Shown piece after piece: positions 38 through 14,170 of a stretch of DNA of 14,854 nucleotides. Under the pieces are notes generated by a model, which ran no database searches, was not told the DNA's origin, and saw only the letters and a program-made list of their open reading frames with translations. Within the stretch, counting starts at the first letter, position 1, and each line of letters begins with the position of its first letter. The translations under genes were made by a program, and so were the position numbers. Source of the DNA: Calditrichaceae bacterium (GTDB taxonomy: Bacteria > Calditrichota > Calditrichia > Calditrichales > JBFXGD01); assembly GCA_050178385.1 (NCBI GenBank), contig JBFXGD010000079.1, forward strand, positions 1 through 14,854, written 5' to 3'.

Positions 38-478
38 TTATAATGAGGACAAGTGATTTCTCGCTAATGCGCGAACTGCCTGCACCATGGCCATAAGTCC
101 CATTCCTTTACCCATTGAAATGTTCTGCCGAAAGATTTTATATACGATTTCATCCGGGATCTCCGCGACTTCAGAGGCTGTAAGACCGGAGAGTGTTTTC
201 TCCAGAATGGCTGCTAATGCTTTCGCCGAAATTCCGGATGGATTTTCCACTGCAAAATATAGTTTAACCGTCCCGTCATCCTGGAGAATGGACCAGACAA
301 AGGCGTCCGATTCACAATAGGGGATTTTGTTCCTTTCCGGAAACGGACGTTTTGCAATTTCCGGAGGAACTTCCCGATATTGATCCGCATAGCTTATCAG
401 AAACTCTGCCCGATCGGTCAGATCATCCACAAGAGAAAGGTTTTCGATAAGTTCCGCCAGCTTTTCCGGCACGCGCAT
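38..478 (-). CDS. sufE: SufE-family sulfur acceptor / Fe-S metabolism-associated protein
   Basis: About 146 aa with the SufE layout: 'DRAEFLISYA' helix, conserved Cys in 'KIPYCESDAFVW' (codon 316..314; compare SufE GCQSQVW), 'ISAKALAAIL..LSGLTASEV..IP' and a C-terminal 'GKGMGLMAMV'. Start is ATG 478 or the adjacent TTG 481, after GGAAG. Lies about 30 bp downstream of the sulfurtransferase on the same strand. Confidence 0.88.
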   Translation of the reverse strand: MRVPEKLAELIENLSLVDDLTDRAEFLISYADQYREVPPEIAKRPFPERNKIPYCESDAFVWSILQDDGTVKLYFAVENPSGISAKALAAILEKTLSGLTASEVAEIPDEIVYKIFRQNISMGKGMGLMAMVQAVRALARNHLSSL

Positions 479-510
479 CAAATCTTCCAGGGATCGTTTG
501 ACTTCAACAC

Positions 511-1374
511 TTATTTTTCAATCGGAACGTTTACAAGATTCCCGTACTCCGTCCAGGATCCGTCATAATTCCGCACATGATTATATCCAATCAGATAGGT
601 GAGTACAAACCAGGATAAACTGCTTCGTTCACCGATCCTGCAATATGTGATAATGTCATTATCCGGTTTTAATCCCTGTTTGCGCAGATATATTTCCTTT
701 AAATCCTGTGAATCTTTAAACGTACCGTCTTCAGCATTCACCGCCATGCTCCATGGCACATTGGCCGCGCCCGGTATATGACCGCCTCTTAATGCCCCCT
801 CATTGGGATATCCTTCCATGTGCAACCGCGCGCCACTGTACTCTTCAGGACTGCGCACATCAACAAGCGGCAGTTTCTTTTCAACATGTTTCAGAACATC
901 ATCCCGGAAGGCGCGAATATTGTGGTCGCTGCGCTCACGCGCCGCGTACCTGCTCACAGAATATTTAGGGACATCTCTTGTCATGGGCCGCCGCTCCATT
1001 TCCCACTTAACACGGCCTCCATCCATGATCTTCATCCGGTTATGACCGAACAAACTGAACACCCAAAAGGCATAGCACGCCCACCAGTTATTCTTATCGC
1101 CATAAAAAACAGCCGTTGTGTCTTTTGTCATGCCAATTCTGGACATCAGTTCTTCAAACCCACCGCGGTGGATATAATCACGGCGTACCTGATCATTTAA
1201 ATCCGTCGTCCAGTCCACATGTACGGCGCCGGGTATATGCCCGGATGAGTACAACAGTGTGTCCTCATTTGATTCAATGATGCGTATCTCCGGATTTTTG
1301 AGATTTTCTTCCACCCAATCCGTTGACACCAGTACTTCGGGGTGTACATATCCCCGTTTATCTATGTTATTCAT
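511..1374 (-). CDS. sseA: Tandem-domain thiosulfate/3-mercaptopyruvate sulfurtransferase (rhodanese, SseA/CysA type)
   Basis: Rhodanese motifs 'LVSTDWV', '[10 protein letters not shown]', 'MDGGRVKW', '[12 protein letters not shown]', '[12 protein letters not shown]', active-site loop 'YCRIGERSS' (Cys codon 642..640) and '[12 protein letters not shown]'. ATG 1374 is preferred over TTG 1386 because GGAG lies 6 nt upstream of it. Confidence 0.95.
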
Positions 1375-1514
1375 AGGATACTCCAATTATTAATGGTTGA
1401 AACTGTATTAGGTTTAGCGAAGGAAAATGACGGAAAATTCCCCGGGATTACGGGTTATCTTACTAACTTAGTTGTGGATAGAAGAAATAATATATGAATT
1501 CTGAATTAAAGAAA

Positions 1515-2027
1515 TTACCCCAGGGACTGCCCGGCATATATCGTTTTACTCTCTGCCGGCCTGCCTGTGCTGTTTTTCATCCTGATATGGATTGTCTTTT
1601 CGATTTTCGCGTGTGTGACCCCATCCGAAGATTTGAGTTCGACCATGTATTTCCGGTCCGTCTTTGGATTAAGTTTCAAAAATTTAACAATCTCAGAGAT
1701 TTCATTTTCGTCCAGAGTGAAATCCGCGTACAGGGTCTCCCGTCCGGGTTTCACAAAACGAATTGAAGCGGCTTTATCCCATACAATGTAATCCGGGCCC
1801 AAAATCTTAAGAAGCATAATCATATAAATCGGATCAACTCCACCATACATGCTTCCGCCGAATATAGTATTGACATAATTTCTTGTTCTCATACTCAGGG
1901 GAATTTTAATCCGGATATTGGTCCAGTCACCTGAAATATGGAGGATACGCGCTCCCGTACCTCTGTATGCGGGAAAGATATTCATCCCCCATCTGAAAAT
2001 TTTTGTTTTGAATGTTTCGGATACCAC
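1515..2027 (-). CDS. DUF4442 / hotdog-fold (PaaI-like) putative acyl-CoA thioesterase
   Basis: 'FPAYRGTGARI', 'RTRNYVNTIFGGSMYGGVDPIYMIML' and 'VWDKAASIRFVKPGR' are typical of DUF4442 hotdog-fold proteins. GTG start is preceded by AGGA. Confidence 0.85.
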   Translation of the reverse strand: MVSETFKTKIFRWGMNIFPAYRGTGARILHISGDWTNIRIKIPLSMRTRNYVNTIFGGSMYGGVDPIYMIMLLKILGPDYIVWDKAASIRFVKPGRETLYADFTLDENEISEIVKFLKLNPKTDRKYMVELKSSDGVTHAKIEKTIHIRMKNSTGRPAESKTIYAGQSLG

Positions 2028-2138: not shown

Positions 2139-5100
2139 TCATTGCGGGTTTTTCTCATGATTTTCTAAAATAACCTTGCTGACCGTTTCGGCAAGTTCTT
2201 TAATATTGAAAGGCTTGGTTATCACACCCTTAAAACCATATTCCTCATAATTCGCCATCACCGGATCATTTGAATATCCACTCGTGACAATCGATTTCAG
2301 CCCCGGATCCATTTCTTTCATAATCCGGATCGTTTCCTTGCCGCCCATGCCGCCGGGAACGGTCAAATCCATCAAGACCAGGTCAATCGGTTTACCAGAT
2401 TCCCCGGCCAGCTTGTATTTTTCAATTGCTTCCCTGCCGTCAAAAGCGAAAACAACTTCATATCCTAATTTTTTGAGCATATTTCCGCATGCTTTCAGGA
2501 TAAGATCATCATCATCCATTACCAGAATGATTCCGCTGCCTTTGGTTATTTTTTCAGTACCGGGAATTACCGCTTTTTTGGTTGTTGCTACCGCCGGAAG
2601 ATAAATGATAAATTCCGTTCCTCTCCCAAGCTCTGATTTTACAGTGATATATCCCTGATGATTTTTTATAATCGAATGGGTGGTGGCAAGTCCCAGTCCG
2701 TTACCCTGCTGTTTTGTGGTAAAATAGGGATCAAATATTTTATCCAGATGATTCATGGGGATCCCAATCCCCTCGTCTCTTATGATCACTTTTATATACT
2801 TTCCGCTTTTTAGCAGACTGTTTTTATCTTCCTTAACATGCAGATTCTCCGCGATTATTTCCAGTTTACCCCCTTCCGGCATCGCCTGATCAGCATTTAT
2901 AACAAGATTATTCATAACCTGACTCAGCTGCCCTTCATCAACTTCAATAGACCACAGATTCTTCGGAATTGATATTTTTGACTTAACGTTGGATCCTCTC
3001 AACGCAAACTCAGATGTTTCTTTTATAAGCATTCCCACATCCGATAATTTTTTAACCGGCGCGCCACCGCGTGAAAAAGTCAATAACTGCTGGGTCAGAT
3101 CCTTTGCCCTCATTGTAGCTTTCTCGGCATCATCGAGCCGGTCGAATGTTTTTTCCCCGGGTTTGAGATTTAATTTGGCGAGCGAGATGTTTCCCAAAAT
3201 TGCCGTCAGCAGGTTATTAAAATCATGGGCTATTCCCCCGGCAAGCAATCCAACCGACTCGAGTTTTCTGTTTTTTAAAACTTCATTTTCAAGGAACCGA
3301 TGCTCGGTAATATCTCTGAAAACCAATACTATACCAAGTATTTTGCTGTCTCTATCTCTGATCGGCGCGCCGCTGTCGGCAATAATTCTCTCCGTCCCGT
3401 CTTTAGAAATTAACAGTGTCGAACTTGCAAGACCTACAATCGCCCCGGATTTCATAACTTTTTTAACCGGATTTTCGGCAGGTTTTTTTGTTTTTTCATC
3501 GATAATTCTGAATACTGCATGCAAGGGTTTTCCATGAGCCTCGGATTGTGTCCAGCCGGTCAGCTCCTCCGCCACATTATTCAGCATTACAATATTTCCA
3601 TGAATATCAGTGGTTATTACGGCATCACCAATGCTTCTCAATGTCACGGCCAAACGTTCTTTTTCCGCCGCCAAATCTTCTTCCACCTTTATCCGGTCAG
3701 TTATATCCACACAAACACCGTTTATCTGGCAGGTTATGCCATTTTCATCCAAAAGCGGTTCCGCTGTTTCATAAAGCCAGCGTATATTGCCGTCTTTTCT
3801 AATAACACGATATTCTCCGTGAGCCGCCTGACCATCTAAAAGGGCATTGATTGACGTTTTTACAAATCCAGAATCATCCGGATGAATGATTGAGGACCAG
3901 AGGCTTCCATTCGCGTTTAAAAATTCTTCTGATTTGTATCCCGTTATTCTGTATATATTCTCAGTATAAATGGAATAGGAAATATTTCTATTTTTATCTG
4001 AATTCGCGCTCCACAGAAAACCGTTAACGCTTGAAGTCAGATCGTCCATCCTTTGCTTATTGATGATGAGCTCATTTTCGATTTTCTCCCTCTCCCCGAC
4101 CATATAATTCGCTGATTCCGCCAGCACTTTAAATTCATCAAGCTTTAGCTTTCCCTCACTGATCTTTTTATGCTTGTGTGCCGCCTGCTTAAAGAAGGAT
4201 GTAAATATATCGAATTCGTCCTTAATTTTTTCCGAATAATAATTAGCAAGCAGCAAGGTCAGTGTGAGAACGAATATAAAAAGCAGCAAAATACTGATAA
4301 TGTGCTGCATCACCCCCATCTTCAGTTGCTTCTTATGCGCGGATATAACACTGTTTATGTCATCAAGATATACACCCGCGCCTATCATCCATTTCCAGTC
4401 ACTCACCGCTTTGATAAATGATATCTTTGGCGAATGTTGGCGGGTTGACGGTTTTAGCCAAGAGTAATGTATATATCCCCCTTCAGGATTTTCGGCCGCT
4501 TTTCTCTCTAACTGTACAACTTTTACGCCATTGGTGTCCGTCAATTCCCAGACATTATCTCCCGCTTTATATTTTTCCGAGTCAATGATCAGCGCGATTC
4601 CATCAAAAGTGTTAACAAAAACATACCCGTTTTCATCATAGCTAATCCTTGAAATTCGCTCAAGAACTTCTTTCTTAATATCATTTTCGACATTATCAAG
4701 GAATTCTCCGGTACCGATAAACCAGTTGAAAGGCTCAAAAATCTTTACAAACCCTATCTTGGGAGATGTATTTCCTGAGTTGTCATCCGGGCGGTGCCAG
4801 TAATACTTTCGATAAATTTCCTTTTTCTTTTTTATAAGCGCGATGATTTCTTTAGTCACATATTTTCCGTCTGCATCAACCCATTCCCCCAGACTGGTGC
4901 CCTCCACTGACGGTTCCGGAGGATATAACCGAGAGACGCCGTTCATATCCGTCACAATAAAATAACTCCTCCCACTGTTAAATCGGGCAGGCCTGAGAGC
5001 ATCAATGACCATTCTTTTTAAATCGCTATCCGGATACCGGTGTTTGTTTTGGTTATAAATATTGGAGGCTATGGCATGGGCCTGATAAACACGTTGTTTT

Positions 5101-5348
5101 AAATCAGCACGAAGATTTTTTTCATACACTGTCCTGTTATACTGAATATAGCTGATAACATTTTCAACCTGATCCCTGACCATTTTCTTTTGAGATTCTA
5201 TATATGTTCTTTCCAGCTCTTCCGACTGTTGTTCAAACTGACGGAATTCGGCTGTTATCCAGAAAAAGCCGATAGAAACAGACATAAGTATCAGCGCCGC
5301 GGTGGCGCCGGTCATAAAAATACGTCTGATATTGTTGTTTTTAAACAT
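2139..5348 (-). CDS. Membrane-bound hybrid sensor histidine kinase/response regulator (TM - 2x Cache_2 - TM - 2x PAS - HisKA - HATPase_c - REC; CckA-like transmitter)
   Basis: Two TM segments flank two Cache-like repeats ending 'WFIGTGEFLD' and 'WMIGAGVYLD'. PAS motifs: 'IIHPDD..GEYRVIRKDGNIRWL' and 'SIGDAVITTD..GTERIIADSGAPI'. H-box 'GGIAHDFNNLL' (His codon 3227..3225), N-box 'NLVINADQAM', G-boxes 'DEGIGI', 'FDPYFTTK', 'GNGLGL'. REC: 'VMDDD', 'LMDLTVPGGMGG', 'KPF'. ATG 5348 has GGAG 7 nt upstream, so it is preferred to TTG 5387. Confidence 0.95.
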   Translation of the reverse strand: MFKNNNIRRIFMTGATAALILMSVSIGFFWITAEFRQFEQQSEELERTYIESQKKMVRDQVENVISYIQYNRTVYEKNLRADLKQRVYQAHAIASNIYNQNKHRYPDSDLKRMVIDALRPARFNSGRSYFIVTDMNGVSRLYPPEPSVEGTSLGEWVDADGKYVTKEIIALIKKKKEIYRKYYWHRPDDNSGNTSPKIGFVKIFEPFNWFIGTGEFLDNVENDIKKEVLERISRISYDENGYVFVNTFDGIALIIDSEKYKAGDNVWELTDTNGVKVVQLERKAAENPEGGYIHYSWLKPSTRQHSPKISFIKAVSDWKWMIGAGVYLDDINSVISAHKKQLKMGVMQHIISILLLFIFVLTLTLLLANYYSEKIKDEFDIFTSFFKQAAHKHKKISEGKLKLDEFKVLAESANYMVGEREKIENELIINKQRMDDLTSSVNGFLWSANSDKNRNISYSIYTENIYRITGYKSEEFLNANGSLWSSIIHPDDSGFVKTSINALLDGQAAHGEYRVIRKDGNIRWLYETAEPLLDENGITCQINGVCVDITDRIKVEEDLAAEKERLAVTLRSIGDAVITTDIHGNIVMLNNVAEELTGWTQSEAHGKPLHAVFRIIDEKTKKPAENPVKKVMKSGAIVGLASSTLLISKDGTERIIADSGAPIRDRDSKILGIVLVFRDITEHRFLENEVLKNRKLESVGLLAGGIAHDFNNLLTAILGNISLAKLNLKPGEKTFDRLDDAEKATMRAKDLTQQLLTFSRGGAPVKKLSDVGMLIKETSEFALRGSNVKSKISIPKNLWSIEVDEGQLSQVMNNLVINADQAMPEGGKLEIIAENLHVKEDKNSLLKSGKYIKVIIRDEGIGIPMNHLDKIFDPYFTTKQQGNGLGLATTHSIIKNHQGYITVKSELGRGTEFIIYLPAVATTKKAVIPGTEKITKGSGIILVMDDDDLILKACGNMLKKLGYEVVFAFDGREAIEKYKLAGESGKPIDLVLMDLTVPGGMGGKETIRIMKEMDPGLKSIVTSGYSNDPVMANYEEYGFKGVITKPFNIKELAETVSKVILENHEKNPQ

Positions 5349-5658
5349 TGGGGACTCCAGAATTGGGCCTGATCTGAGTTCTTCCAAATTTATTAAATAT
5401 ATTATTATGATATGTGATAAATTTAATTTCTCAAAGTAAAAAATAAAATATTACATCCAGGTCAATGCATTTGTCGGAATAAAGCGTCTTTTTACCTACC
5501 AGGCGCATATAAAATAAATGTTGTTTATGCGTATATATTTTGGGAATTTGTAGTATTTCCGGGAATTTCTGTGAACTAAGATATTGCATTCTCGTTTAAT
5601 TTCCGAATTGATCGGCGTGATCCAGGGTGATTACAACATTTTTTAAGGATTGCATTTT
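5349..5658. promoter_or_regulatory. AT-rich divergent intergenic region expected to contain promoters for the hybrid kinase (-) and the hydrolase A/NTT unit (+)
   Basis: 310-bp non-coding, AT-rich gap between divergent starts. Contains an 8-bp direct repeat GGGAATTT (5542-5549, 5561-5568) and RBS AAGGA at 5645-5649. No individual -35/-10 pair can be assigned confidently. Confidence 0.55.
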
Positions 5659-6576
5659 ATGAAAATAATCTATCTTTTAATTACTGCTTTATTAGTTTTT
5701 ATCCCGCAAGGCTTTACTCAGTCAGTTAAAGATGAGCCCCTTCCTTACTCCATCGCTGACAAGGAAATAAAACCATTAAGAAAACTGGTTGACAAGGATT
5801 TTCAGAATGAATTGGAAAAGCAGCTTCGAAAAGACAAGACCTGGGCCAGGCTGATCGATAAAAAGAAAATGTCCGTCGGTCTTGTTGATATCAGTGATCC
5901 CCATCATGTCCGTTTTGCGAGGGTTAATGGCGACTTGATGATGTATGCGGCAAGTCTGCCAAAACTGGCAATCCTGCTGGGTTCAGCTCAGGCGCTTGAA
6001 GACGGTACACTTGAAGAGACGCCGGAAATATTAAATGATATGCGCCTAATGATTAGTAAGTCAGATAATTCGGCGGCAACGCGGATGATTGACCGGATTG
6101 GGTTTAAACAAATCCAGTCTGTCCTCATGAATCCAAAGTATCAGCTCTACGCGCCGGATCTGGGGGGCGGTTTGTGGGTCGGTAAACGCTACGCGAAATT
6201 GGGAAAACGCTATCCTGATCCTTTAATGGGTCTTAGCCATGGCGCTACCGCCACACAGGTTTGCCGGTATTATTATTTGCTGGCGTTTGGGAAACTCGTT
6301 AATCGGGAACGTTCAGCTCAAATGCTGGATTTCCTGGCGGATCCTGAACTTCACCATAAATTTGTGCATAGTCTCGACGAACTCGTTCCCAATGCAAGGA
6401 TTTACAGAAAATCAGGTACCTGGCGGAACTGGCATTCAGATTCTGTGATGGTCTGGGGACCGGAATGGCGGCGTTATATACTTGTGGGACTTGTCGAAGA
6501 TCCTCATGGAGAGGCCATTCTTAGAAATTTGTTATTGACGGCGGAGATTGTTTTAAAATCCGGTAAAAAAATCTAA
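5659..6576 (+). CDS. Exported serine hydrolase of the class A beta-lactamase/PBP fold (Beta-lactamase2-like), hydrolase A
   Basis: Signal peptide MKIIYLLITALLVFIPQGFT. SxxK 'AASLPK' (5953-5964), SxN 'SDN' (6061-6069), KTG-type 'KSG' (6409-6417). ATG 5659 is 9 nt after AAGGA. No ExxLN omega-loop motif seen. Confidence 0.88.
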   Translation: MKIIYLLITALLVFIPQGFTQSVKDEPLPYSIADKEIKPLRKLVDKDFQNELEKQLRKDKTWARLIDKKKMSVGLVDISDPHHVRFARVNGDLMMYAASLPKLAILLGSAQALEDGTLEETPEILNDMRLMISKSDNSAATRMIDRIGFKQIQSVLMNPKYQLYAPDLGGGLWVGKRYAKLGKRYPDPLMGLSHGATATQVCRYYYLLAFGKLVNRERSAQMLDFLADPELHHKFVHSLDELVPNARIYRKSGTWRNWHSDSVMVWGPEWRRYILVGLVEDPHGEAILRNLLLTAEIVLKSGKKI

Positions 6577-6595
6577 CACTAAAGAGTATGGTTTT

Positions 6596-9472
6596 ATGGT
6601 GGCCAGAAATAACGTTTCCAGTGTAAAATTCATCGATATTGTTGAAAAGATACTAAACGAAACTTTTGATATACGGCACGGTGAGGGAAGACGGGCCCTT
6701 ATGATGTGGGGCTATATTTTTCTGATCATCTCCTCCCTGCTCATTGTAAAACCCGTCGTTATTTCTATGTTCCTCACCCGGTTCGGCGTTGAACAGCTGC
6801 CTTTTGTATTTATTCTGGTGGCTGTGTTCGCGGCTGCCATATCATCGCTTTATTCAGGACTGCTCAAAAAAGTGCCGGTTCATCATTTAATTGTAAAGAC
6901 TCTTAAAATTTCGATTACTTTTTTATTCATATTCTGGTCGTTTCTGCAGTTAAATTTGCTGCCAGGCTGGATCATATACATTTTTTATATATTTGTCGCC
7001 ATATTTGCCGTCATCTCCAGTTCTCAGTTCTGGATACTCGCAAATGTGATTTTTAACGCCAGGGAGGCAAAGCGCTTATTCGGATTTATCGGGTCCGGAG
7101 CCATTGCCGGAGGTATATTCGGCGGATATCTTACAAATTTTCTTGCACCTGTCATTAGCAGCGAAAATCTGATCTTTATCTGTATCGCGTTTTTATTGTT
7201 GTGTATTCCGATCACAAATAATTTATGGAAGGAGTATTTTAAGAACGCCGAACACCGCAAACTATACCGTGAACATCCGGTAGCCGTGACGGCAGCTCAT
7301 CCGGTCAGGATAATCAGGCAGTCAAAACATCTTATTTATCTGGCAAGCATTGTCGGAACAGGCGTTCTGGTCGCCAAACTTATTGAATACCAGTTCGGGG
7401 CCATCGCCGCCAGAGAAATCACCAATGAAGATCAGTTAACCGCGTTCTTCGGATTCTGGCTTTCCAATCTGAATATCGCCTCCCTCCTGATCCAGCTGTT
7501 TGTCACTCGCCGGGTTGTGGGTGTTTTTGGAGTGGGAACATCATTGTTTTTTCTGCCGGTAGGAATTCTCTTTGGAGCGGTGACCATCTTTATCACTCCC
7601 GTGCTGTGGGCGGGAATATTTATTAAAATAACAGACGGCAGTCTTAAGAACTCCATAAACAAGGCCGGGATCGAACTGCTCGCCCTGCCTATTCCGGTGG
7701 GAATTAAGAATCAGGCAAAATCGTTCATCGATGTTTTTGTGGATAGTTTCGCGACAGGTATCGGCGGCTTGCTTCTCATCTTTTTGACATATGGATTTGA
7801 TTTCACCATCAGACAGATCAGTCTTATTATTATTTTATTGCTTTCTCTATGGATTTATCTTGTCACCAGGATTAGAAAAGAGTATATCAATTCATTCCGC
7901 TTAAAGATTGAGCCCAATAAAGTACACTCAAATTCCGGTTTGCCTGATATTCAAAACGAGTCCGTATATGGAGGATTCATCAAAATCCTTGAGGGAAAAA
8001 ATGAATCTCAGATTCTCCAAATTCTCAAAATGGTAAAACCGGTTCAAAATGACCGCCTGATTCCCTGTTTTCAACGACTTCTAAACCATCATTCCGGAGA
8101 GATAAAACTGGAAGTATTGAGAAATATCTATTTCTATAAACACCTGGATCTTTCCGATGAAGTCATATCTCTGGCTGATGATCCGGATATGGAAATAAAA
8201 ACAGAGGCCATGCATTATCTGTTTCAAAGCGCCGGAGGGAACAAAATTGACAAACTTAATTCGTTCCTGCAGTCGCCCGATATTACCATTCGCGGAGCCG
8301 CCCTCCTTTGCGCGGCAAGAGAAAGCCGCAATAATCCGGAATTAAGACAGCAATTCAGAGTTAAGGAATCGGTTGACGAACTAATGAAAGATTTGCGGCT
8401 TCAGACCAATAAATCATTGACGAAATCATTAAAAATTATTGCTTCCCGGGTCATTGGCGCCGCGGATATTTCCGAATTGTATCCATACCTTCATATCCTG
8501 TTGAGCGATCGTGATTTTGATATCTTACAAGCCGCCATATTAGCCGCCGGGTCGAGCAAAAACAAGGAATTTCTACCGGTTCTGATCCGGATGCAGAAAA
8601 AGAAAAGATTATGGAAATACACCTATGAAGCTCTCACATCTTTTGGGCCAGATATCCTGGATGATCTGAATGAGCATTTAAATAATCCGTATGTAGACAG
8701 AAATATTCGATTAAGCATTCCCGCTCTGATCGCCAATTTCCGTATTCAAAAAGCGGTTGATGTTCTGGTGAAAAATTTGCAGCTTAAAGACGCGCTTATT
8801 CGCTATGAAGTCATCAATGCCTTATACGACCTGAGACTAAATTCATCCGGACTCAATTTTCATGTCCCGAACATCGTAAACCGGATTTTTGCAGAGGCCC
8901 GCGACTATGTAAACACTCTCGCGTTTCTGTATTTGCAGGTGCAGGCAGATTCAAAAATTGGTGCCCGGACTGCGCCTGATCCCAATCAGACCCAATTACA
9001 CGAAGCCAGAAATTTGCTGATAAAGGCGCTGGAAGATCGCCTGGACAACAATCTGGAAAGAATTTTCCGGTTACTCGGATTAAAATATCCGCCTGAAGAT
9101 ATCGAGAATGTGTACAGCGGAATCACCAGCAGCAAACCTGATGTCCGTGTCAACGCGGTTGAGTTTTTGGATAATGTCCTTGAAAGCGATCTGAAAAAGA
9201 TCATCATACCGATTGTTGAAACGACGATGATCAGTTCTGTGATTGATAAAACGCTTGAGCAGTTCGGCTTAAAAATCAAATCAGAGCACGAATGCTTAAC
9301 GACACTTCTTACAAGCGAAGATTCGACATTGCAAATCCGCACCTTATACCTTGTCAGCCAATTAAAGGACGAGCAGTATCTTCCATACATTGGTTCGTTG
9401 GTAAACAGCCCGGATTCAAAAGTTCGGAAAATGGCCGGTTTCGCGTTAAAACATATCGGTATCGACAGGTAA
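6596..9472 (+). CDS. NTT/TLC (Npt1/Npt2-like, MFS-fold) nucleotide transporter fused to C-terminal HEAT repeats
   Basis: The first ~430 aa have about 12 hydrophobic segments with NTT-like motifs 'LLIVKP', 'QFWILANVIFNAREAKRLFGFIGSGAIAGGIFGG', 'KLIEYQF', 'SLKNSINKAGIELLALPIP' and 'AKSFIDVFVD'. The C-terminal ~520 aa is helical with HEAT signatures ('DPDMEIKTEAM', 'SPDITIRGAAL', 'DALIRYEVINAL', 'PDVRVNAVEFL', 'SPDSKVRKMA'). 19 bp downstream of hydrolase A. Confidence 0.88.
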   Translation: MVARNNVSSVKFIDIVEKILNETFDIRHGEGRRALMMWGYIFLIISSLLIVKPVVISMFLTRFGVEQLPFVFILVAVFAAAISSLYSGLLKKVPVHHLIVKTLKISITFLFIFWSFLQLNLLPGWIIYIFYIFVAIFAVISSSQFWILANVIFNAREAKRLFGFIGSGAIAGGIFGGYLTNFLAPVISSENLIFICIAFLLLCIPITNNLWKEYFKNAEHRKLYREHPVAVTAAHPVRIIRQSKHLIYLASIVGTGVLVAKLIEYQFGAIAAREITNEDQLTAFFGFWLSNLNIASLLIQLFVTRRVVGVFGVGTSLFFLPVGILFGAVTIFITPVLWAGIFIKITDGSLKNSINKAGIELLALPIPVGIKNQAKSFIDVFVDSFATGIGGLLLIFLTYGFDFTIRQISLIIILLLSLWIYLVTRIRKEYINSFRLKIEPNKVHSNSGLPDIQNESVYGGFIKILEGKNESQILQILKMVKPVQNDRLIPCFQRLLNHHSGEIKLEVLRNIYFYKHLDLSDEVISLADDPDMEIKTEAMHYLFQSAGGNKIDKLNSFLQSPDITIRGAALLCAARESRNNPELRQQFRVKESVDELMKDLRLQTNKSLTKSLKIIASRVIGAADISELYPYLHILLSDRDFDILQAAILAAGSSKNKEFLPVLIRMQKKKRLWKYTYEALTSFGPDILDDLNEHLNNPYVDRNIRLSIPALIANFRIQKAVDVLVKNLQLKDALIRYEVINALYDLRLNSSGLNFHVPNIVNRIFAEARDYVNTLAFLYLQVQADSKIGARTAPDPNQTQLHEARNLLIKALEDRLDNNLERIFRLLGLKYPPEDIENVYSGITSSKPDVRVNAVEFLDNVLESDLKKIIIPIVETTMISSVIDKTLEQFGLKIKSEHECLTTLLTSEDSTLQIRTLYLVSQLKDEQYLPYIGSLVNSPDSKVRKMAGFALKHIGIDR

Positions 9473-9482
9473 ATCATTCAAA

Positions 9483-10730
9483 CTATTTTGAAATGATCCG
9501 GTCGATAAACGTCGCCAGCGATTGATGCTCCACCGCTGAATTTTTCTTTAATACATTTGACATAAGCGCCACAAGATAGACACGGCCGGCCGGATGCTCG
9601 ACGATGGCAACCGAGTTCATATAGTTTTCAACATTTCCCATATATTTCCCGCACTTGAAATCGGGTTCCACTTTGCAGCGGTACTGGCTTCCCGATTTAA
9701 AATATACCGCCGCGTCCGTTAACGCCGGACTCGAGGCGTAACGGATTCGCTTTGCGGTCATATACATCATTCTTTTGATCTCCAGGCTTGACCATTCATC
9801 CACTATTTTCCCCCGTTCCAGCGCGATGAGATATTTTAGCAACGCCGTGGGTGTTCCGTAACTTCCTCCGCCACCCGGAACAAGTTTTTTGCCTGTTTGC
9901 GTAAAAAAGCTGCCCAGCTGCCATTCATTCTGCTCTATCCCCATAACCCTTAACGGATCATTCACCGTCGACATGGCTATGGCGCTCAATTCGCTTTTTG
10001 AAGTTTTTTCAAAAAAATGCTTTTCCCACTCCGCACTCGCAGGATAATTTTTCCCAAACGCCCTCATCAAAAGAACTTCTTTCCAAACCACGCTTGCCGC
10101 TGAATTCGCGCTGGCTGAGATCATGTGATCCACCCATTCATAAAGAGAAAATGTATCCCCTTCTTTTATCGGTCTCCAGAATGAAGCCTTGGTCTCCGGA
10201 TTAAAAAACGGGACGTCATGATGATCGGTGAGTATCCATTTATCCGCGACAACCATTCGTGTGCGCAGCAGCTCCCGTCTTTTTTCCGGGGAGACCGGGT
10301 AGATTTTTTGTAATTCCGTAAACAGCCCCGCTAAAATCGCCAGCTTTCCCACACTGCCGGGCGCGAATCTGTTATCAGCCTGACGCTTTGCGAAACGCGT
10401 CGGTTTACCCGGCGTTATCTCAAGAAGCGCCAGTGAATAACTTTCATCGCGGTTCGGAAACAGCGCGTCAATCCGTTTTTGTAATTCCGGATCTACCTTC
10501 GGAAGAGCATCGAGACTATCACCCCTGGCGTTTAACAGGTTCAGGGCGATTTCCGCGTAAGGCTTCCGGCCTCCCGGTGGAGGCAATGTCCCCTTGATTT
10601 GTCCCTCGCTTATCATACTCAGTTTTAACAGCCGTCTTATTCCTGTCCATTGATAGCCGTCAATCGGATAACCCGAGAGACCATCAAAAAGGATCATAAA
10701 AAGCAGTAAAATCCCAATTTTTATTTTCAT
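9483..10730 (-). CDS. Exported serine hydrolase of the class A beta-lactamase/PBP fold, hydrolase B
   Basis: Signal peptide MKIKIGILLLFMILFDGLSG. SxxK 'PGSVGK' (10355..10344), SxN 'SAN' (10112..10104), 'YFKSGS' (KSG 9698..9690), helix start 'GTPTALLKYL'. RBS GGGGAG lies in the 33-bp gap after the dikinase. Confidence 0.82.
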   Translation of the reverse strand: MKIKIGILLLFMILFDGLSGYPIDGYQWTGIRRLLKLSMISEGQIKGTLPPPGGRKPYAEIALNLLNARGDSLDALPKVDPELQKRIDALFPNRDESYSLALLEITPGKPTRFAKRQADNRFAPGSVGKLAILAGLFTELQKIYPVSPEKRRELLRTRMVVADKWILTDHHDVPFFNPETKASFWRPIKEGDTFSLYEWVDHMISASANSAASVVWKEVLLMRAFGKNYPASAEWEKHFFEKTSKSELSAIAMSTVNDPLRVMGIEQNEWQLGSFFTQTGKKLVPGGGGSYGTPTALLKYLIALERGKIVDEWSSLEIKRMMYMTAKRIRYASSPALTDAAVYFKSGSQYRCKVEPDFKCGKYMGNVENYMNSVAIVEHPAGRVYLVALMSNVLKKNSAVEHQSLATFIDRIISK

Positions 10731-10763
10731 TGGATTTATTTCTCCCCAACATTGAAATAAACG

Positions 10764-13697
10764 CTACTTAAGTGTATCGCTCAGTGATATCCGGATATTT
10801 TTGATTTTTGGATCCATATTCCGGAGATATTCCGAAGATCGCGCCTTTTTGTTTTCCACAAACGGCCTGACCTGGAACAACCAAATTTGCCCGTCTTTAA
10901 ATCCCAGTTCCACGTCAAACGGTCCTTTTGATTCAATACCGGGGGTTCCCGGGAGTTTCTTTTTAATCTCATCGGCAAATGCGCGAAGCATGATCAGTTC
11001 ATTGTTATCCAGCACCGGTTTGTTTAAAGACATGATTGCTTTCGCGGTTCCTCCGGATGCGGGTAGCGTTGTGCTGAGAGTTTCCCTTGACGGAGACAAT
11101 AATTGAATGGTACCGTCACTTCTCAGAAGATACGATTCGGCCGCCTGACCCTCCACAGCCCCGCCTGCTCCCCGGTTAAAGGCGATGGTTACATCATCCG
11201 CATTCCCTGAAGTCACGCCGGTTGTGATCATCACGCCAGATTTTTCAACATCGACCGTTGGTATAATGAGAATAGACGGATATACATTTTCCGGATTTAG
11301 CAGAAATTTCTGCCTCCATTTATAACTCCGTTCCGTGAACGGAGAAGCCCAGACATCGCGGATAGCCTGAAAAATTTTTTCTTCTTCAACCACATTAAAA
11401 ACAGTCAGATTGAGTCCCGCGCCCGTAAAATCCTTCAAATCTTCCATATTGGTGTCACTGCGGATAAAAACCGGTACACTACCTATTTCCCTACCCAGAA
11501 TATCCGCAAATCCCGAGTTCATCTTTTGTAAAAACTCCTGTGAAAAATTAATTTTCTGGATGGCGTCACGAAGCGCTTCGAGACGCTTTAAGACCATTGA
11601 ATCAATCTGATCAGGCGTCATACCGGTTTTATTCTCCACGGATGCATTCTCAAATGTCCCCTGTAAATACTGCCAGTAAGTCAATTCACCACCCGGCATG
11701 ATTTGATCCAAGTGCTGTCGGAAAATTCCGAATGGAATCACAAGACCTTCCACAACCTGCTGCGGGAACATACTTTTCAACTGACCAAGATTTGCAGCTT
11801 TCGGGCCGCAAATTTTTCCCGAATCAAGTGCCCTGAGTTTTCGAAGATTTAAAATATCGGTCTGATTCAAATTGATTTTCCCGGTGGGAACCTTAATTCT
11901 TTCCTCTTTCCTTTTTTTTATCTGAATAAGTGACTTTTCCTTATCCGTCATTTTTTCGGCCGGTTTCATCAACACGCTGCCACCCGGTGAAACCGCGTAA
12001 AACACATCTTTTCCCGAATAAACAGATAAATCGGCCAAATTTTGTTCCGACAAAACCGCGTTCGGGATGCCAAGATTCCGCGCCAGCAGCTGCACATGCG
12101 AAACAAGATTGCCCTCGGAAACAGTCGCGATTCCCGCTACCGGCTTCATATCCGCCGGCGGCCGCATAAGAATATAAATTTTATCCGCCGCGAACTGAAT
12201 ATCATCCGGCGCCCCGGGAACAACTTCCAGCTTCCCAAAAGCAAACCCCGGATTGAGACCGGTAATTTTATTCTGATTGCTTATCCCCATTACATTGTTG
12301 CTCTGCCCGGCGTAAATGGACAACCTATCCGACAGATCGCCTGCAATTTCTCCGAGAGGAAGCAGAACAGAACCACGGATGCGGTCATCGGTAAATCCTT
12401 TTGCCAGCGGTTCGAAAGCGCCGAACAAAGAAACGACCGATTCAAAATTAGTCCGCACCATTCCCGCGCTCCATTCCACTGCGCGTCTTGAGATTTCGCT
12501 TTTTCTTCTGAAATCATCCAGGCTCATATCCTCTGCGCCGCCGGACGACAATAATAATGGTTCAATTTGTTCCCATTCCCATTTTTCAATAAAACCGCAG
12601 CCTGCCGCGGCTTTTGTAAGATAGTAATTTTTCTCAAGCAGCCCGCCGATGGTCTCAGGCATCCATAAATGAATTTCACTAAAAAGTATCATTTCGAGTT
12701 CGTTTGAAAGATCAATGATTGCCAGACGCTGATCCGGCCTTGACACAGAAAGCAGATTCGCCCTGATCTCCCACAGGAGTGAAGAAATATCTTTTATCCT
12801 GTTATTCTGAAGATCCTGACTGTTCTTTTTACCGTATGCCGCGATCAGCTTTTTAGTCCGCGCGGACAGAATGTTCGATGTTGGTAATTTTTCGATATAT
12901 TTGCTGAGTGTCTGGAGGTCTGTAGGCTTGAACGCCAGTTCTAGTTCACTCTCCAGGTTCTGCAGCAGCTCGGCCATCATCACGGGAATTTTGTTCTTGT
13001 ACCGCGTTTTGAAATTTCTGACCCTTTCCAGATCTCCCGCATCCGGCTGACCGTGTAATTTCACCCGCAAATCCATAAAGGTGGGCAGCGAATCGCCAAG
13101 AGTTTTTGAGAGATCCCGAATATTATTCCAGTGATTATAATTCGCCTTATGCGGAATATCCTTCGCGGCCTGACGCAATAAAAAGAAACGCGTATCAATA
13201 ATTTCACCACTGGAAACCAGCCATTTAAGGAAATTCACTCCCCAGTATTCTTCGTCTTCTACCTGAATAGCGCCCCTGTAGTACCGCGCTTTGCGAAAAA
13301 TCCAGCCGTCATCGCCGCGCTGAAGGTATCTCTCCATCATATACTGTTTTAATCTGGAATTCCGGTTTGATTCATCCCAGACATCTTCAAACTTCGCACC
13401 GGCAAGAATCTGCCCCAAATATATCCCGTTATTTTTTGCAAGTCTTGTAACAATATCTTTGTGAATTGCATGCTGGATGCCGCCGGGTTCAGGACATCTT
13501 TCCTTTGGCGGAATGATACTGCCATCCGGACAAAACCAGCGAATCGCCTGATAAGGGCCGCGTTCATCTTTTTTAAATGACTGAATTAATCTTGCGATTT
13601 CGGCAGATTCAATTGACTGTGAGTAAAGATTGACGGTAAAAACTAAAAACAGAAACTGAAAAAGAAGCAGAAGAGGAATGAGGACTTTTGATTTCAT
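10764..13697 (-). CDS. Signal-peptide-bearing dikinase of the PEP-utilising/PPDK superfamily with GWD/PWD-like domain order (unknown N-domain - phospho-His domain - ATP-grasp nucleotide-binding domain)
   Basis: N-terminal hydrophobic signal MKSKVLIPLLLLFQFLFLVFTVNLYS. Phospho-His motif 'EGNLVSHVQLLARNLGIP' (His534, codon 12098..12096). PPDK_N/ATP-grasp motifs 'CGPKAANLGQL' (Lys633), 'GLVIPFGIF', 'VFIRSDTNMEDLKDFTGAGL', 'AIRDVWAS', 'GGAVEG' and 'DVELGFKDGQIWLFQVRP'. No PEP/pyruvate TIM-barrel domain is present. Confidence 0.88.
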   Translation of the reverse strand: MKSKVLIPLLLLFQFLFLVFTVNLYSQSIESAEIARLIQSFKKDERGPYQAIRWFCPDGSIIPPKERCPEPGGIQHAIHKDIVTRLAKNNGIYLGQILAGAKFEDVWDESNRNSRLKQYMMERYLQRGDDGWIFRKARYYRGAIQVEDEEYWGVNFLKWLVSSGEIIDTRFFLLRQAAKDIPHKANYNHWNNIRDLSKTLGDSLPTFMDLRVKLHGQPDAGDLERVRNFKTRYKNKIPVMMAELLQNLESELELAFKPTDLQTLSKYIEKLPTSNILSARTKKLIAAYGKKNSQDLQNNRIKDISSLLWEIRANLLSVSRPDQRLAIIDLSNELEMILFSEIHLWMPETIGGLLEKNYYLTKAAAGCGFIEKWEWEQIEPLLLSSGGAEDMSLDDFRRKSEISRRAVEWSAGMVRTNFESVVSLFGAFEPLAKGFTDDRIRGSVLLPLGEIAGDLSDRLSIYAGQSNNVMGISNQNKITGLNPGFAFGKLEVVPGAPDDIQFAADKIYILMRPPADMKPVAGIATVSEGNLVSHVQLLARNLGIPNAVLSEQNLADLSVYSGKDVFYAVSPGGSVLMKPAEKMTDKEKSLIQIKKRKEERIKVPTGKINLNQTDILNLRKLRALDSGKICGPKAANLGQLKSMFPQQVVEGLVIPFGIFRQHLDQIMPGGELTYWQYLQGTFENASVENKTGMTPDQIDSMVLKRLEALRDAIQKINFSQEFLQKMNSGFADILGREIGSVPVFIRSDTNMEDLKDFTGAGLNLTVFNVVEEEKIFQAIRDVWASPFTERSYKWRQKFLLNPENVYPSILIIPTVDVEKSGVMITTGVTSGNADDVTIAFNRGAGGAVEGQAAESYLLRSDGTIQLLSPSRETLSTTLPASGGTAKAIMSLNKPVLDNNELIMLRAFADEIKKKLPGTPGIESKGPFDVELGFKDGQIWLFQVRPFVENKKARSSEYLRNMDPKIKNIRISLSDTLK

Positions 13698-13897: not shown

Positions 13898-14170
13898 TTA
13901 TTCCACATCACCCCGGTCATCGCAATAACATGAATCACCCTGAAATTTATCCCAAAGCTCTTTGAAGGATGTTAATTCATCAATATGCCCGGAAATCGCT
14001 TTCATTCCGGCATACTTTTTACCATCATCATCCAGGACAGGCAGGCTCTGAAATTTTTGCCGATCTTCAAGCCCGGACAGGACAGTGTCGTATGCGATAA
14101 CCAGTTCATCGAGCCGGTCCTGAAGATCGTCGCATTCAGAACAGTTTTTATGCCGGTATAATGTGATCAT
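13898..14170 (-). CDS. Small glutaredoxin/thioredoxin-fold protein with CxxC and a C-terminal CxC tail
   Basis: 'MITLYRHKNCSECDDLQDRL' gives the beta1-CxxC-helix pattern (CSEC 14143..14132). cis-Pro-type motif 'LPVLDDDGK'; tail 'FQGDSCYCDDRGDVE'. RBS AGGGA upstream. Confidence 0.75.
   Translation of the reverse strand: MITLYRHKNCSECDDLQDRLDELVIAYDTVLSGLEDRQKFQSLPVLDDDGKKYAGMKAISGHIDELTSFKELWDKFQGDSCYCDDRGDVE

Follow-up and report, generated by a model that had tools for sequence, protein, structure and literature searches.

The window analysed here is the entire 14,854-bp contig JBFXGD010000079.1 of assembly GCA_050178385.1, which belongs to a 3.9-Mb genome bin of a Calditrichaceae bacterium (320 contigs, 94% complete), and it carries four tightly packed genes coding for two enzymes of the penicillin-binding protein (PBP)/beta-lactamase fold (BL1 and BL2), a nucleotide transporter-type membrane protein with a HEAT-repeat tail (NTT-HEAT), and a dikinase. 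An earlier note, made from the sequence alone, had described these genes as a candidate extracytoplasmic phosphorylation system in which the transporter may power an exported dikinase. The open reading frame (ORF) calls returned all four genes where that note had seen them, namely, BL1 at positions 5659..6576 (plus strand; 305 aa), the NTT-HEAT transporter at 6596..9472 (plus strand; 958 aa), BL2 at 9483..10730 (minus strand; 415 aa), and the dikinase ORF at 10764..13697 (minus strand), and the gaps of 19, 10, and 33 bp between them match the ORF coordinates. The longest ORF of BL1 starts with TTG at 5650, but the ATG at 5659, which has the sequence AAGGA 9 nt upstream and was preferred, is likely to be the true start. 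The four-gene observation itself is thus confirmed, and the gene order, with BL1 followed by the transporter on one strand and the dikinase followed by BL2 on the other, is that of two convergent two-gene units and not of a single operon. The 10-bp gap (9472-9483) lies between the converging stop codons of the transporter and BL2 genes, where the median gap between high-scoring segment pairs across related loci is 29 bp; because 10 bp is too short for separate terminators, the two transcripts probably overlap at their 3' ends. We tentatively regard the four genes, at a likelihood a little short of even, as one functional module for ATP-dependent phosphotransfer outside the cytoplasm.

The arrangement recurs well beyond the window. 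When metagenome contigs were screened with a dikinase alignment of 20 sequences, we obtained 499 relatives among 535 pattern matches, and the best 80 of them, together with one genome locus, make up the 81 loci considered here, in which the dikinase shares 48 to 91% identity with that of the window and which collapse into 62 clusters when dereplicated at 90% dikinase identity; a scan of genome contigs with the single dikinase protein gave one close relative. BL2 lies directly downstream of the dikinase, on the same strand, in 67 of the 71 loci with at least 1.4 kb of downstream sequence (55/57 after dereplication), and the full order, in which dikinase and BL2 converge with BL1 and the transporter, was found in 39 of the 45 loci whose downstream sequence extends for 8.2 kb or more. 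After dereplication, it is present in 30 of 34 loci, and the condition that had been set beforehand as refuting the proposal, a lack of co-occurrence in other genomes, does not hold. Furthermore, all-against-all clustering of the 835 ORFs of these loci showed that only four families recur, in 81, 73, 53, and 47 of the 81 loci; the next most frequent flanking family, a 497-aa HAMP histidine kinase, occurs in 11 of 81 loci and is the only other family present in more than 6. Since the flanking genes differ between loci, the module moves as a unit through many genomic contexts. The source names of the close relatives include KSB1, Calditrichota, Latescibacterota, Deferribacteres, Thermodesulfobacteriota, and Aliifodinibius, as well as, from the Bacteroidota, Labilibaculum, Saprospiraceae, and Lewinellaceae.

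A phylogenetic profile was then drawn over 86 genomes of the window's phylum, G000 included; these genomes are related, and the counts are hence given without a statistic. A full-length dikinase occurs in 12 of the 86, the remaining 26 matches at E ≤ 0.001 being either weak ATP-grasp matches to ordinary phosphoenolpyruvate (PEP) synthases or fragments (G045). BL2 was found in 10 genomes, all within the 12 that have the dikinase, and the two dikinase genomes without a BL2 match, G053 and G057, are both fragmented (1,380 and 620 contigs, respectively). BL1 was found in 13 genomes, corresponding to the 12 dikinase genomes plus G045, and NTT-HEAT proteins were found in 22, that is, in all 12 genomes with the dikinase and in 10 of the 74 without it. 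The profile analysis that the earlier note had suggested thus gave a clear outcome for the two PBP-fold enzymes, which occur only alongside the dikinase or its remnant. The remnant is that of G045, where an intact BL1 overlaps (contig C71, positions 20213-21379) a 58%-identical dikinase fragment that covers residues 64 to 181 and contains an in-frame TAG; a second dikinase fragment lies on another contig of the same genome, in which the module appears, from these sequences, to be decaying. In G064, a genome assembled as a single contig, the dikinase lies at 2.15 Mb, BL2 and BL1 side by side at 3.64 Mb, and an NTT-HEAT gene at 4.01 Mb, and the genes of G062 are scattered in much the same way. 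Co-occurrence without linkage, as seen in these two genomes, is a stronger sign of shared function than synteny alone.

The same data bear on an alternative in which the four genes have no functional link and are neighbours by descent only. The presence of two convergent units and the scattering of the genes in some genomes are what it would predict, but the arrangement is retained at about 50% identity in many flanking contexts and the genes keep co-occurring even where they are scattered, so that we consider this explanation extremely improbable.

In G062, the lone dikinase is flanked by genes for a PPK2 polyphosphate kinase and an S8 subtilase (locus L103, positions 5083-5832 and 8923-9903), and the same neighbours occur in G064 (locus L099). 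A PPK2 beside an AMP-producing enzyme is suggestive, although the pairing is confined to one genus; the PPK2 of G062 was rejected as a periplasmic regenerator of ATP, as the match to the PPK2 profile begins at residue 4 and leaves no room for a leader.

The dikinase consists of four parts, all on the minus strand. A predicted signal peptide (residues 1 to 27; 13617..13697), made of MKSK, an 18-residue hydrophobic core, and LYS-Q, is followed by an N-terminal domain (N-domain; residues 28 to 476; 12270..13616) that was assigned to no known family, by a swivel phosphohistidine domain (residues ~477 to 600; 11898..12269) that carries His534, and by a C-terminal ATP-grasp domain (residues ~614 to 977; 10767..11858). 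The ATP-grasp domain is matched by PF01326 (PPDK_N) on residues 630 to 956 with 94.1 bits (cut-off, 27), and its best solved relative is the PEP synthase 8a8e (E = 1.4e-16). The swivel domain was assigned by a sub-threshold match to PF00391 (PEP-utilizers; residues 516 to 548; E = 0.012; 15.6 bits against a cut-off of 23.1) and by its alignment with the His domain of the same solved PEP synthase. With an ATP-grasp domain and a swivel catalytic His, the protein belongs to the PEP-utilising dikinase superfamily.

The conservation of these elements was evaluated on relatives taken from the 81 loci and dereplicated at 90% identity, a set that also serves for the motif counts of BL1 and BL2 and for the leader counts given below. 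In the 59 dikinases, H534, the GPKAANLG motif, R746SDTNMED753, the SGV motif, E930, and Q942-x-R944 are invariant, and the swivel motif EGNxVSH534VQLLxxNxGIPN is invariant or nearly so, in line with the His-swivel and ATP-grasp motifs that the earlier note had read from a single sequence. Judged by the unchanged H534 and ATP-grasp motifs, the dikinase is a competent ATP enzyme. In one distant family member, P0191, Asn replaces the catalytic His (ALSNVQLL), and this protein could be an inactive variant.

Databases name these dikinases "phosphoenolpyruvate synthase," a name that finds no support here, because the domain order is permuted (N-domain, His, ATP-grasp) and a PEP/pyruvate-binding domain is lacking. 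In particular, Pfam gave no match to the PEP/pyruvate-binding TIM barrel, either on residues 1 to 629 at E ≤ 10 or on the whole dikinase at E ≤ 0.01, and the NCBIfam PEP synthase models score 28 to 89 bits on the dikinase against cut-offs of 598 to 1,063, the equivalog reaching 89 against 598.

The N-domain is the most distinctive part of the family. Pfam returned nothing beyond noise on it at E ≤ 10, and the AlphaFold2 model built from 55 sequences (pLDDT, 86.6; pTM, 0.85) is largely made up of helices and begins with a small beta element. A Foldseek search of this model against the Protein Data Bank (PDB) gave no match at E ≤ 0.001 (best E, 0.045), and an exhaustive VIA search peaked at a Z score of 9.2 on a generic helical bundle (111 residues), a value within the tool's own chance range for unrelated helical proteins. 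According to these model-based searches, which barely covered the first ~160 residues, the most conserved of the domain, and which can miss relatives, the N-domain is without a solved analogue. Its conserved residues include C56, C68, R115, Y140-R141, E147-D148-E149, H183, R211, K213, and H215, and such a number of invariant Arg, Lys, His, and acidic positions suggests that the active site is genuine, though it does not name the acceptor; the domain is presumed to be the acceptor-binding or catalytic domain.

When the N-domain profile was compared with 1.84 billion representative proteins, 661 clusters were matched at E ≤ 0.001, of which 301 at E ≤ 1e-30. Among the 150 matches listed, the domain starts near residue 25 to 70 in most full-length proteins, most of the others being fragments that start only within the domain, and the full-length members, of ~930 to 1,040 residues, share one architecture with no informative fusions. 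The neighbours in the ESM Atlas include shorter proteins that contain only the His domain, as well as one cluster with GWD1_pHisD in 12% of its members, and are considered as leads only. A complex prediction of the N-domain with BL2, run without controls, gave a score of 0.00 and argues neither for nor against binding.

Both BL1 and BL2 are matched by PF13354 (beta-lactamase 2 family), with 60.8 and 30.2 bits, respectively (cut-off, 22), and the SxxK, SxN, and KSG motifs of serine hydrolases that the earlier note had recognised proved to be invariant across relatives, as S102xxK105, S138xN140, and K254SG in the 36 dereplicated relatives of BL1 and as S126xxK129, S207xN209, and K345SG in the 51 of BL2. 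The family match together with the three motifs places both proteins in the class A beta-lactamase/PBP-A fold. The omega-loop Glu166 general base separates true beta-lactamases from DD-peptidases; the assignment of BL1 and BL2 is at the level of a fold and family that span both kinds of enzyme.

The nearest solved relative of BL1 by profile is a DD-peptidase, PBP-A Tll2115 (E = 0.0025). For BL2, no PDB protein was matched by phmmer at E ≤ 0.1 and the best profile match had an E value of 0.63, but its AlphaFold2 model (pLDDT, 94.3) has as top Foldseek matches class A beta-lactamases and cyanobacterial PBP-A, with target-normalised TM scores of 0.65 to 0.77 at 12 to 18% identity. BL2 carries about 120 residues more than the beta-lactamase fold and a cysteine pair, C352/C360, that is at least 90% conserved. 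NCBIfam gave no match for either protein, and the paralogy between the two is no more than distant (hhalign E = 1e-4). At one locus (L057, positions 17114-19020), BL1 is present in two tandem copies.

A role in detoxification has to be weighed here, in which the exported dikinase would phosphorylate an incoming antibiotic-like molecule, in the manner of the cytoplasmic rifampin phosphotransferase, and BL1 and BL2 would hydrolyse the same or related compounds, with ATP supplied as in the proposed module. Class A beta-lactamases are indeed numerous among the nearest folds of BL2, the dikinase has weak NCBIfam matches to rifamycin phosphotransferase (60.8 bits) and to PigC/RedH, and the spread in the phylum is patchy (12/86 genomes). 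Nevertheless, all the NCBIfam scores are far under their cut-offs (60.8 against 999) and reflect only the shared ATP-grasp domain, the profile relative of BL1 is a DD-peptidase, and no mobile-element genes are found among the recurring neighbours; moreover, a full-length dikinase identity of more than 48% across phyla looks more like a housekeeping function of the envelope. We thus judge detoxification to be improbable.

The third component, the transporter, is composed of a membrane domain of the NTT/TLC type (residues ~1 to 430) fused to a HEAT-repeat tail of ~530 residues. TLC (PF03219) is matched on residues 1 to 468 with 26.6 bits, and with 25.7 on the membrane domain (cut-off, 21), a match that is absent from the scan of the whole 958-aa protein at E ≤ 0.01 and emerges on the membrane domain alone; 22 of 29 transporter relatives match TLC at E ≤ 0.001. 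In the C-terminal half, HEAT_2 (PF13646) and HEAT (PF02985) score 75.6 and 30.8 bits. The membrane-domain profile built from the 29 relatives matches two solved structures, that of the plastid ATP/ADP carrier NTT1 (9j3j; E = 1.5e-14) and that of another NTT (9j3n; E = 3.7e-12), and the motifs FW..AN...EAK and K.K..IDV are common to the transporter and the solved NTT1. The protein is therefore a member of the NTT/TLC family by sequence and an NTT-HEAT fusion by its architecture of an NTT domain with C-terminal HEAT repeats, and the identity proposed for it by the earlier note rests on a TLC score above the gathering threshold, the HEAT_2 match, and the match to NTT1. Hydropathy resolves ten clear spans within residues 41 to 426, and the N terminus and a central loop are rich in K/R; counting the two further, weaker spans that an NTT of 12 helices should have, the HEAT tail is predicted to be cytoplasmic.

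A quick, unrooted IQ-TREE tree was built from 45 NTT-HEATs, comprising 31 cluster-linked proteins (47 full-length rows dereplicated at 80%) and 14 non-cluster ones from the phylum genomes, defined as genes that have neither BL1 nor BL2 next to them; the tree leaves out all partial matches as well as the cluster-linked copies from G038, G039, G058, and G059. One branch, with an SH-aLRT support of 100, splits the 31 from the 14, and the window's transporter groups with the cluster-linked ones of other lineages, apart from the paralogues of its own phylum. Because the cluster-linked NTT-HEATs form a separate branch, a cluster-specific transporter subfamily exists.

Around the non-cluster paralogues (loci L084 to L097, genomes G054 to G085), we could notice M14 carboxypeptidases in G068 and G060; TPR proteins plus lipoproteins of the periplasmic-binding fold in G067, G058, and G059; Omp85, a 580-aa protein without known identity, and an NTT-only gene in G074 and G085; and cNMP-binding proteins in G063 and G061. 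The pairing of NTT-HEAT with a cNMP-binding protein has already been noted in the available text of Major et al. (PMC5381601). The envelope and peptidase neighbours that recur beside the non-cluster paralogues may be informative on the NTT-HEAT family as a whole.

These neighbours belong to the evidence for a different direction of transport, in which NTT-HEAT would import what the exported enzymes produce, or else a nucleotide, for instance AMP, and the phosphoryl donor would come from elsewhere, for example as leaked or environmental ATP. BL1 shares its unit with the transporter, which follows it after 19 bp, as would be the case for a periplasmic hydrolase and its permease, the non-cluster paralogues adjoin exported M14 peptidases and lipoproteins of the periplasmic-binding type, and the general family MFS_1 is also matched by 19 of the 29 cluster-type membrane domains. 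Besides, loci with dikinase and BL2 but no transporter exist, and a periplasm-targeted, ATP-dependent ligase, Lig E, is described in the available text as having no known ATP supplier, with ATP measured in supernatants (bioRxiv 10.64898/2026.03.22.713542). On the other hand, the membrane domain retains the NTT signature motifs and its close profile match to a solved ATP/ADP carrier, and a transporter branch that is specific to the cluster and kept with the dikinase across phyla fits a direct partner of this enzyme. Moreover, ATP outside the cell is nanomolar, which makes it a poor supply for a conserved enzyme. Uptake of this kind is, in our opinion, unlikely.

The location of the three enzymes was examined through their N termini. 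A leader was scored as a 12-residue core with a mean Kyte-Doolittle hydropathy of at least 1.9 ahead of the first conserved residue, by a simple hydropathy/charge script and no trained predictor. Such a hydrophobic leader begins 54 of the 59 dikinases (four of the five misses being 5'-truncated ORFs), all 51 BL2 proteins, and all 36 BL1 proteins, so that the export signals claimed for these three proteins are conserved across their relatives. K/R precedes the core in 54/54 dikinase leaders and [AGS]Q follows it in 50/54; the latter pattern fits the Q-rule for signal peptidase I substrates of Bacteroidetes, which, according to the available text of the same source, does not extend to the whole FCB group (PMC5837995). 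In BL1, [AGS]Q follows the core in 23 of 36 leaders and 5 are lipobox-like, and in BL2 it was found in 1 of 51. Just after the dikinase leader, the cysteine pair C56/C68 (RWFCxDG...C) is at least 90% conserved; along with the C352/C360 pair of BL2, it counts in favour of export. Furthermore, 12 distant members of the dikinase family (~30% identity) all begin with a leader, and the Cys motif could be seen by eye in most of them, being clearly missing in one.

The placement of the dikinase, deduced from its sequence alone, leaves room for a salvage route in which the leader would be an uncleaved anchor and the enzyme would face the cytoplasm. BL1 and BL2 would release a compound, NTT-HEAT would import it, and the dikinase, which may dock on the HEAT tail, would phosphorylate it with cytoplasmic ATP, in a way that resembles the AmpG/AnmK route of cell-wall recycling. 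This scheme requires no ATP outside the cell, and it would make use of the HEAT tail, which is predicted to be cytoplasmic and is without an assigned role in the available text of Major et al. (PMC5381601). It has to contend, however, with the leaders themselves, since K/R before the core in all 54 predicts an N-in/C-out orientation and the [AGS]Q pattern is like that of signal peptidase I sites. The conserved cysteine pair right after the leader and the family-wide start of the N-domain at residue ~25 to 70 likewise fit a cleavable leader better than a functional membrane domain. On these grounds, cytoplasmic salvage seems quite unlikely to us.

For the module that we favour, the evidence thus comes directly from the anatomy of the genes, the catalytic motifs, the leaders, the linkage and co-occurrence across taxa, and the separate transporter subfamily, to which it can be added that the fold of BL1 and BL2 is one that works outside the cytoplasm. 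It is possible to hypothesize that the dikinase would be exported through Sec and its leader cleaved, and that its periplasmic ATP-grasp domain would then move the beta-phosphate of ATP to His534 of the swivel domain, with release of AMP and Pi. The swivel domain would hand the phosphate over to an acceptor bound in the N-domain, the part specific to this family. In the inner membrane, the cluster-specific NTT-HEAT would act as an exchanger that supplies ATP and brings back AMP, alone or together with Pi, its HEAT tail being on the cytoplasmic side, and in the same compartment as the dikinase the PBP-A-like acyl-serine enzymes BL1 and BL2 would make, trim, or use the same substrate, which would most likely be an envelope peptide or ester, for example a peptidoglycan stem. 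We infer the export of the enzymes, the use of periplasmic ATP as the donor, what the transporter carries and in which direction, and what kind of molecule the acceptor is. The broader proposition, that bacteria deliberately supply the periplasm with ATP through an NTT-HEAT working as an ATP-out/AMP(+Pi)-in exchanger, so that the dikinase phosphorylates, and thereby activates or marks, an envelope peptide or glycan that the PBP-like enzymes ligate, trim, or remove, is possible but rather doubtful.

A number of observations weigh against this reading. The transporter and the dikinase belong to different, convergent transcription units. Among the dereplicated loci with full flanks, the transporter is missing next door in 4 of 34, and in three more loci BL1 comes directly after BL2; no substitute transporter was found in the loci without NTT-HEAT, whose neighbours include an HTH plus M78 regulator, a TetR-type regulator, a PD40/MA peptidase, and an acyl-CoA dehydrogenase. 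NTT-HEAT also occurs in 10 of the 74 phylum genomes without the dikinase, and in the dikinase genomes G060, G061, G062, and G064 the NTT-HEATs included in the tree belong to the non-cluster type, which is the only one found at the locus tested in G064. The absence of a cluster-type transporter from these loci and genomes weakens the ATP-export step a little. NTT-HEAT is thus wider than the cluster, and the general role of the family need not be that of feeding a dikinase. As for the enzymes, BL2 may stay anchored in the membrane, given the near absence of [AGS]Q from its leaders, and the export of all three proteins is read from signals in their sequences. Finally, characterised NTTs import ATP against ADP, different from the AMP that a dikinase would yield, and free ATP would be costly in a periplasm with porins and phosphatases. 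On balance, the interpretation given by the earlier note is partly supported, in that the association of the genes and their export signals hold, while the putative ATP-export step is not universal.

The comparison with known systems helps to define what is distinctive in this module. The plant and algal glucan, water dikinases (GWD/PWD) similarly combine a substrate part, a swivel His, and a C-terminal ATP-grasp domain of the PPDK_N type, and the reaction ATP + acceptor + water → AMP + Pi + phospho-acceptor, established for them, would by inference also be that of the window's dikinase. However, different from GWD/PWD, the latter gave no Pfam match to CBM45, CBM20, or GWD1_pHisD (PF22973) on residues 1 to 629 at E ≤ 10, its N-domain is helical in the model with no carbohydrate-binding-module match in the fold searches, and it is a bacterial protein with a predicted Sec leader, linked to PBP-fold enzymes and a transporter rather than to starch enzymes. 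The PPDK_N ATP-grasp domain and the swivel His motif are shared with PEP synthase and pyruvate, phosphate dikinase (PPDK), where the order is instead ATP-grasp, His, and TIM barrel, whereas in the window's protein the order is permuted and the TIM barrel was not detected. Rifampin phosphotransferase (RPH) and PigC/RedH are also three-domain enzymes of the dikinase type that pass phosphate to a non-glycolytic acceptor, and it is to their ATP-grasp domain that the weak NCBIfam matches refer; nevertheless, they are cytoplasmic, their substrate domains are unrelated to that of the window's dikinase, and the scores are far under the cut-offs. The domain order of RPH and PigC/RedH, too, differs from that of the window's dikinase.

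With the NTT translocases, namely, plastid NTT1 and the chlamydial and rickettsial Npt/Tlc proteins, the window's transporter shares the TLC family and the signature motifs of NTT1, but its gene is linked to those of enzymes predicted to be exported, its organism is not known as host-associated, and the ATP-out direction proposed for it would be the reverse of the role in parasites and plastids. By architecture, that is, by the C-terminal HEAT fusion, it can be likened to the NTT-HEAT clade of Major et al. 2017, though it stands on a branch separate from the NTT-HEATs of its own phylum. NTT-HEAT is called widely conserved and uncharacterised in the available text of that article, which holds zero mentions of a dikinase or a beta-lactamase (PMC5381601). 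BL1 and BL2 resemble PBP-A and class A beta-lactamases in PF13354, in the three motifs, and, for BL2, in the superposition of the model, and they differ from them in an identity of only 12 to 18%, in the ~120 extra residues of BL2, and in the lack of an NCBIfam match.

As for phosphorylation and ATP outside the cytoplasm, a precedent is offered by Lig E, an exported and ATP-requiring enzyme whose ATP source is termed an outstanding question in the available text (bioRxiv 10.64898/2026.03.22.713542); LpxT, for which the title of a paper links a periplasmic phosphorylation of lipid A to undecaprenyl phosphate synthesis, is an example of periplasmic phosphorylation. Neither of them comes with a dedicated nucleotide carrier gene. 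ATP is stated, in the available text of a review, to reach the Gram-negative periplasm by "a hitherto unknown mechanism" (PMC7432876). The literature searched holds no description that links dikinase or beta-lactamase-fold genes with NTT-HEAT, nor was a characterised pathway of this combination found there, as the earlier note had supposed.

The remainder of the window adds little to the picture of the four genes. A hybrid sensor kinase (dCache, PAS, HisKA, HATPase, and receiver domains) at 2139-5387 on the minus strand points away from BL1, from which a spacer of 262 bp separates it, and is conserved only in the near-identical relatives L003 and L004. Upstream of the dikinase, a 90-aa ORF (13898-14170, minus strand) has a CSEC motif near its N terminus and looks by eye glutaredoxin/thioredoxin-like; it has no Pfam match and is retained, at 73 to 74% identity, in L003 and L004 only. 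Genes for a SufE-like protein, a two-domain rhodanese (3-mercaptopyruvate sulfurtransferase-like), and a DUF4442 protein (38-2027, minus strand) are unrelated to the cluster. The sequencing runs listed for this DNA were four DNA runs and no RNA run. A riboswitch lead was not found, since Rfam gave, over the whole window at E ≤ 1, two sub-threshold matches that both lie outside the cluster, and a scan for promoters and terminators was uninformative, with 20 and 9 sites, respectively, against 18.2 and 10.4 in shuffled sequences.

The periplasm is assumed to be free of ATP, and transpeptidation, lipoprotein sorting, lipopolysaccharide transport, and the TonB/Tol systems are powered from the inner membrane or by pre-activated substrates. 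In this context, a conserved module in which an ATP-dependent enzyme with predicted export is joined by a dedicated transporter of the ATP/ADP carrier type makes the question of periplasmic ATP directly testable, and experiments are feasible because the database names of the relatives include cultured genera, such as Labilibaculum (L. filiforme and L. manganireducens) and Aliifodinibius (A. salicampi). The analysis also defines a new dikinase family, with 661 representative clusters and a substrate domain without a solved analogue, and it provides an initial clue to the function of the NTT-HEAT family, for which no characterisation was found in the literature searched. If the proposed reading were true, the module would represent a new kind of system, with ATP-driven chemistry in a compartment thought to be free of ATP, and it would provide the first dedicated route of ATP export in free-living bacteria and assign to the widespread NTT-HEAT family its first physiological role.

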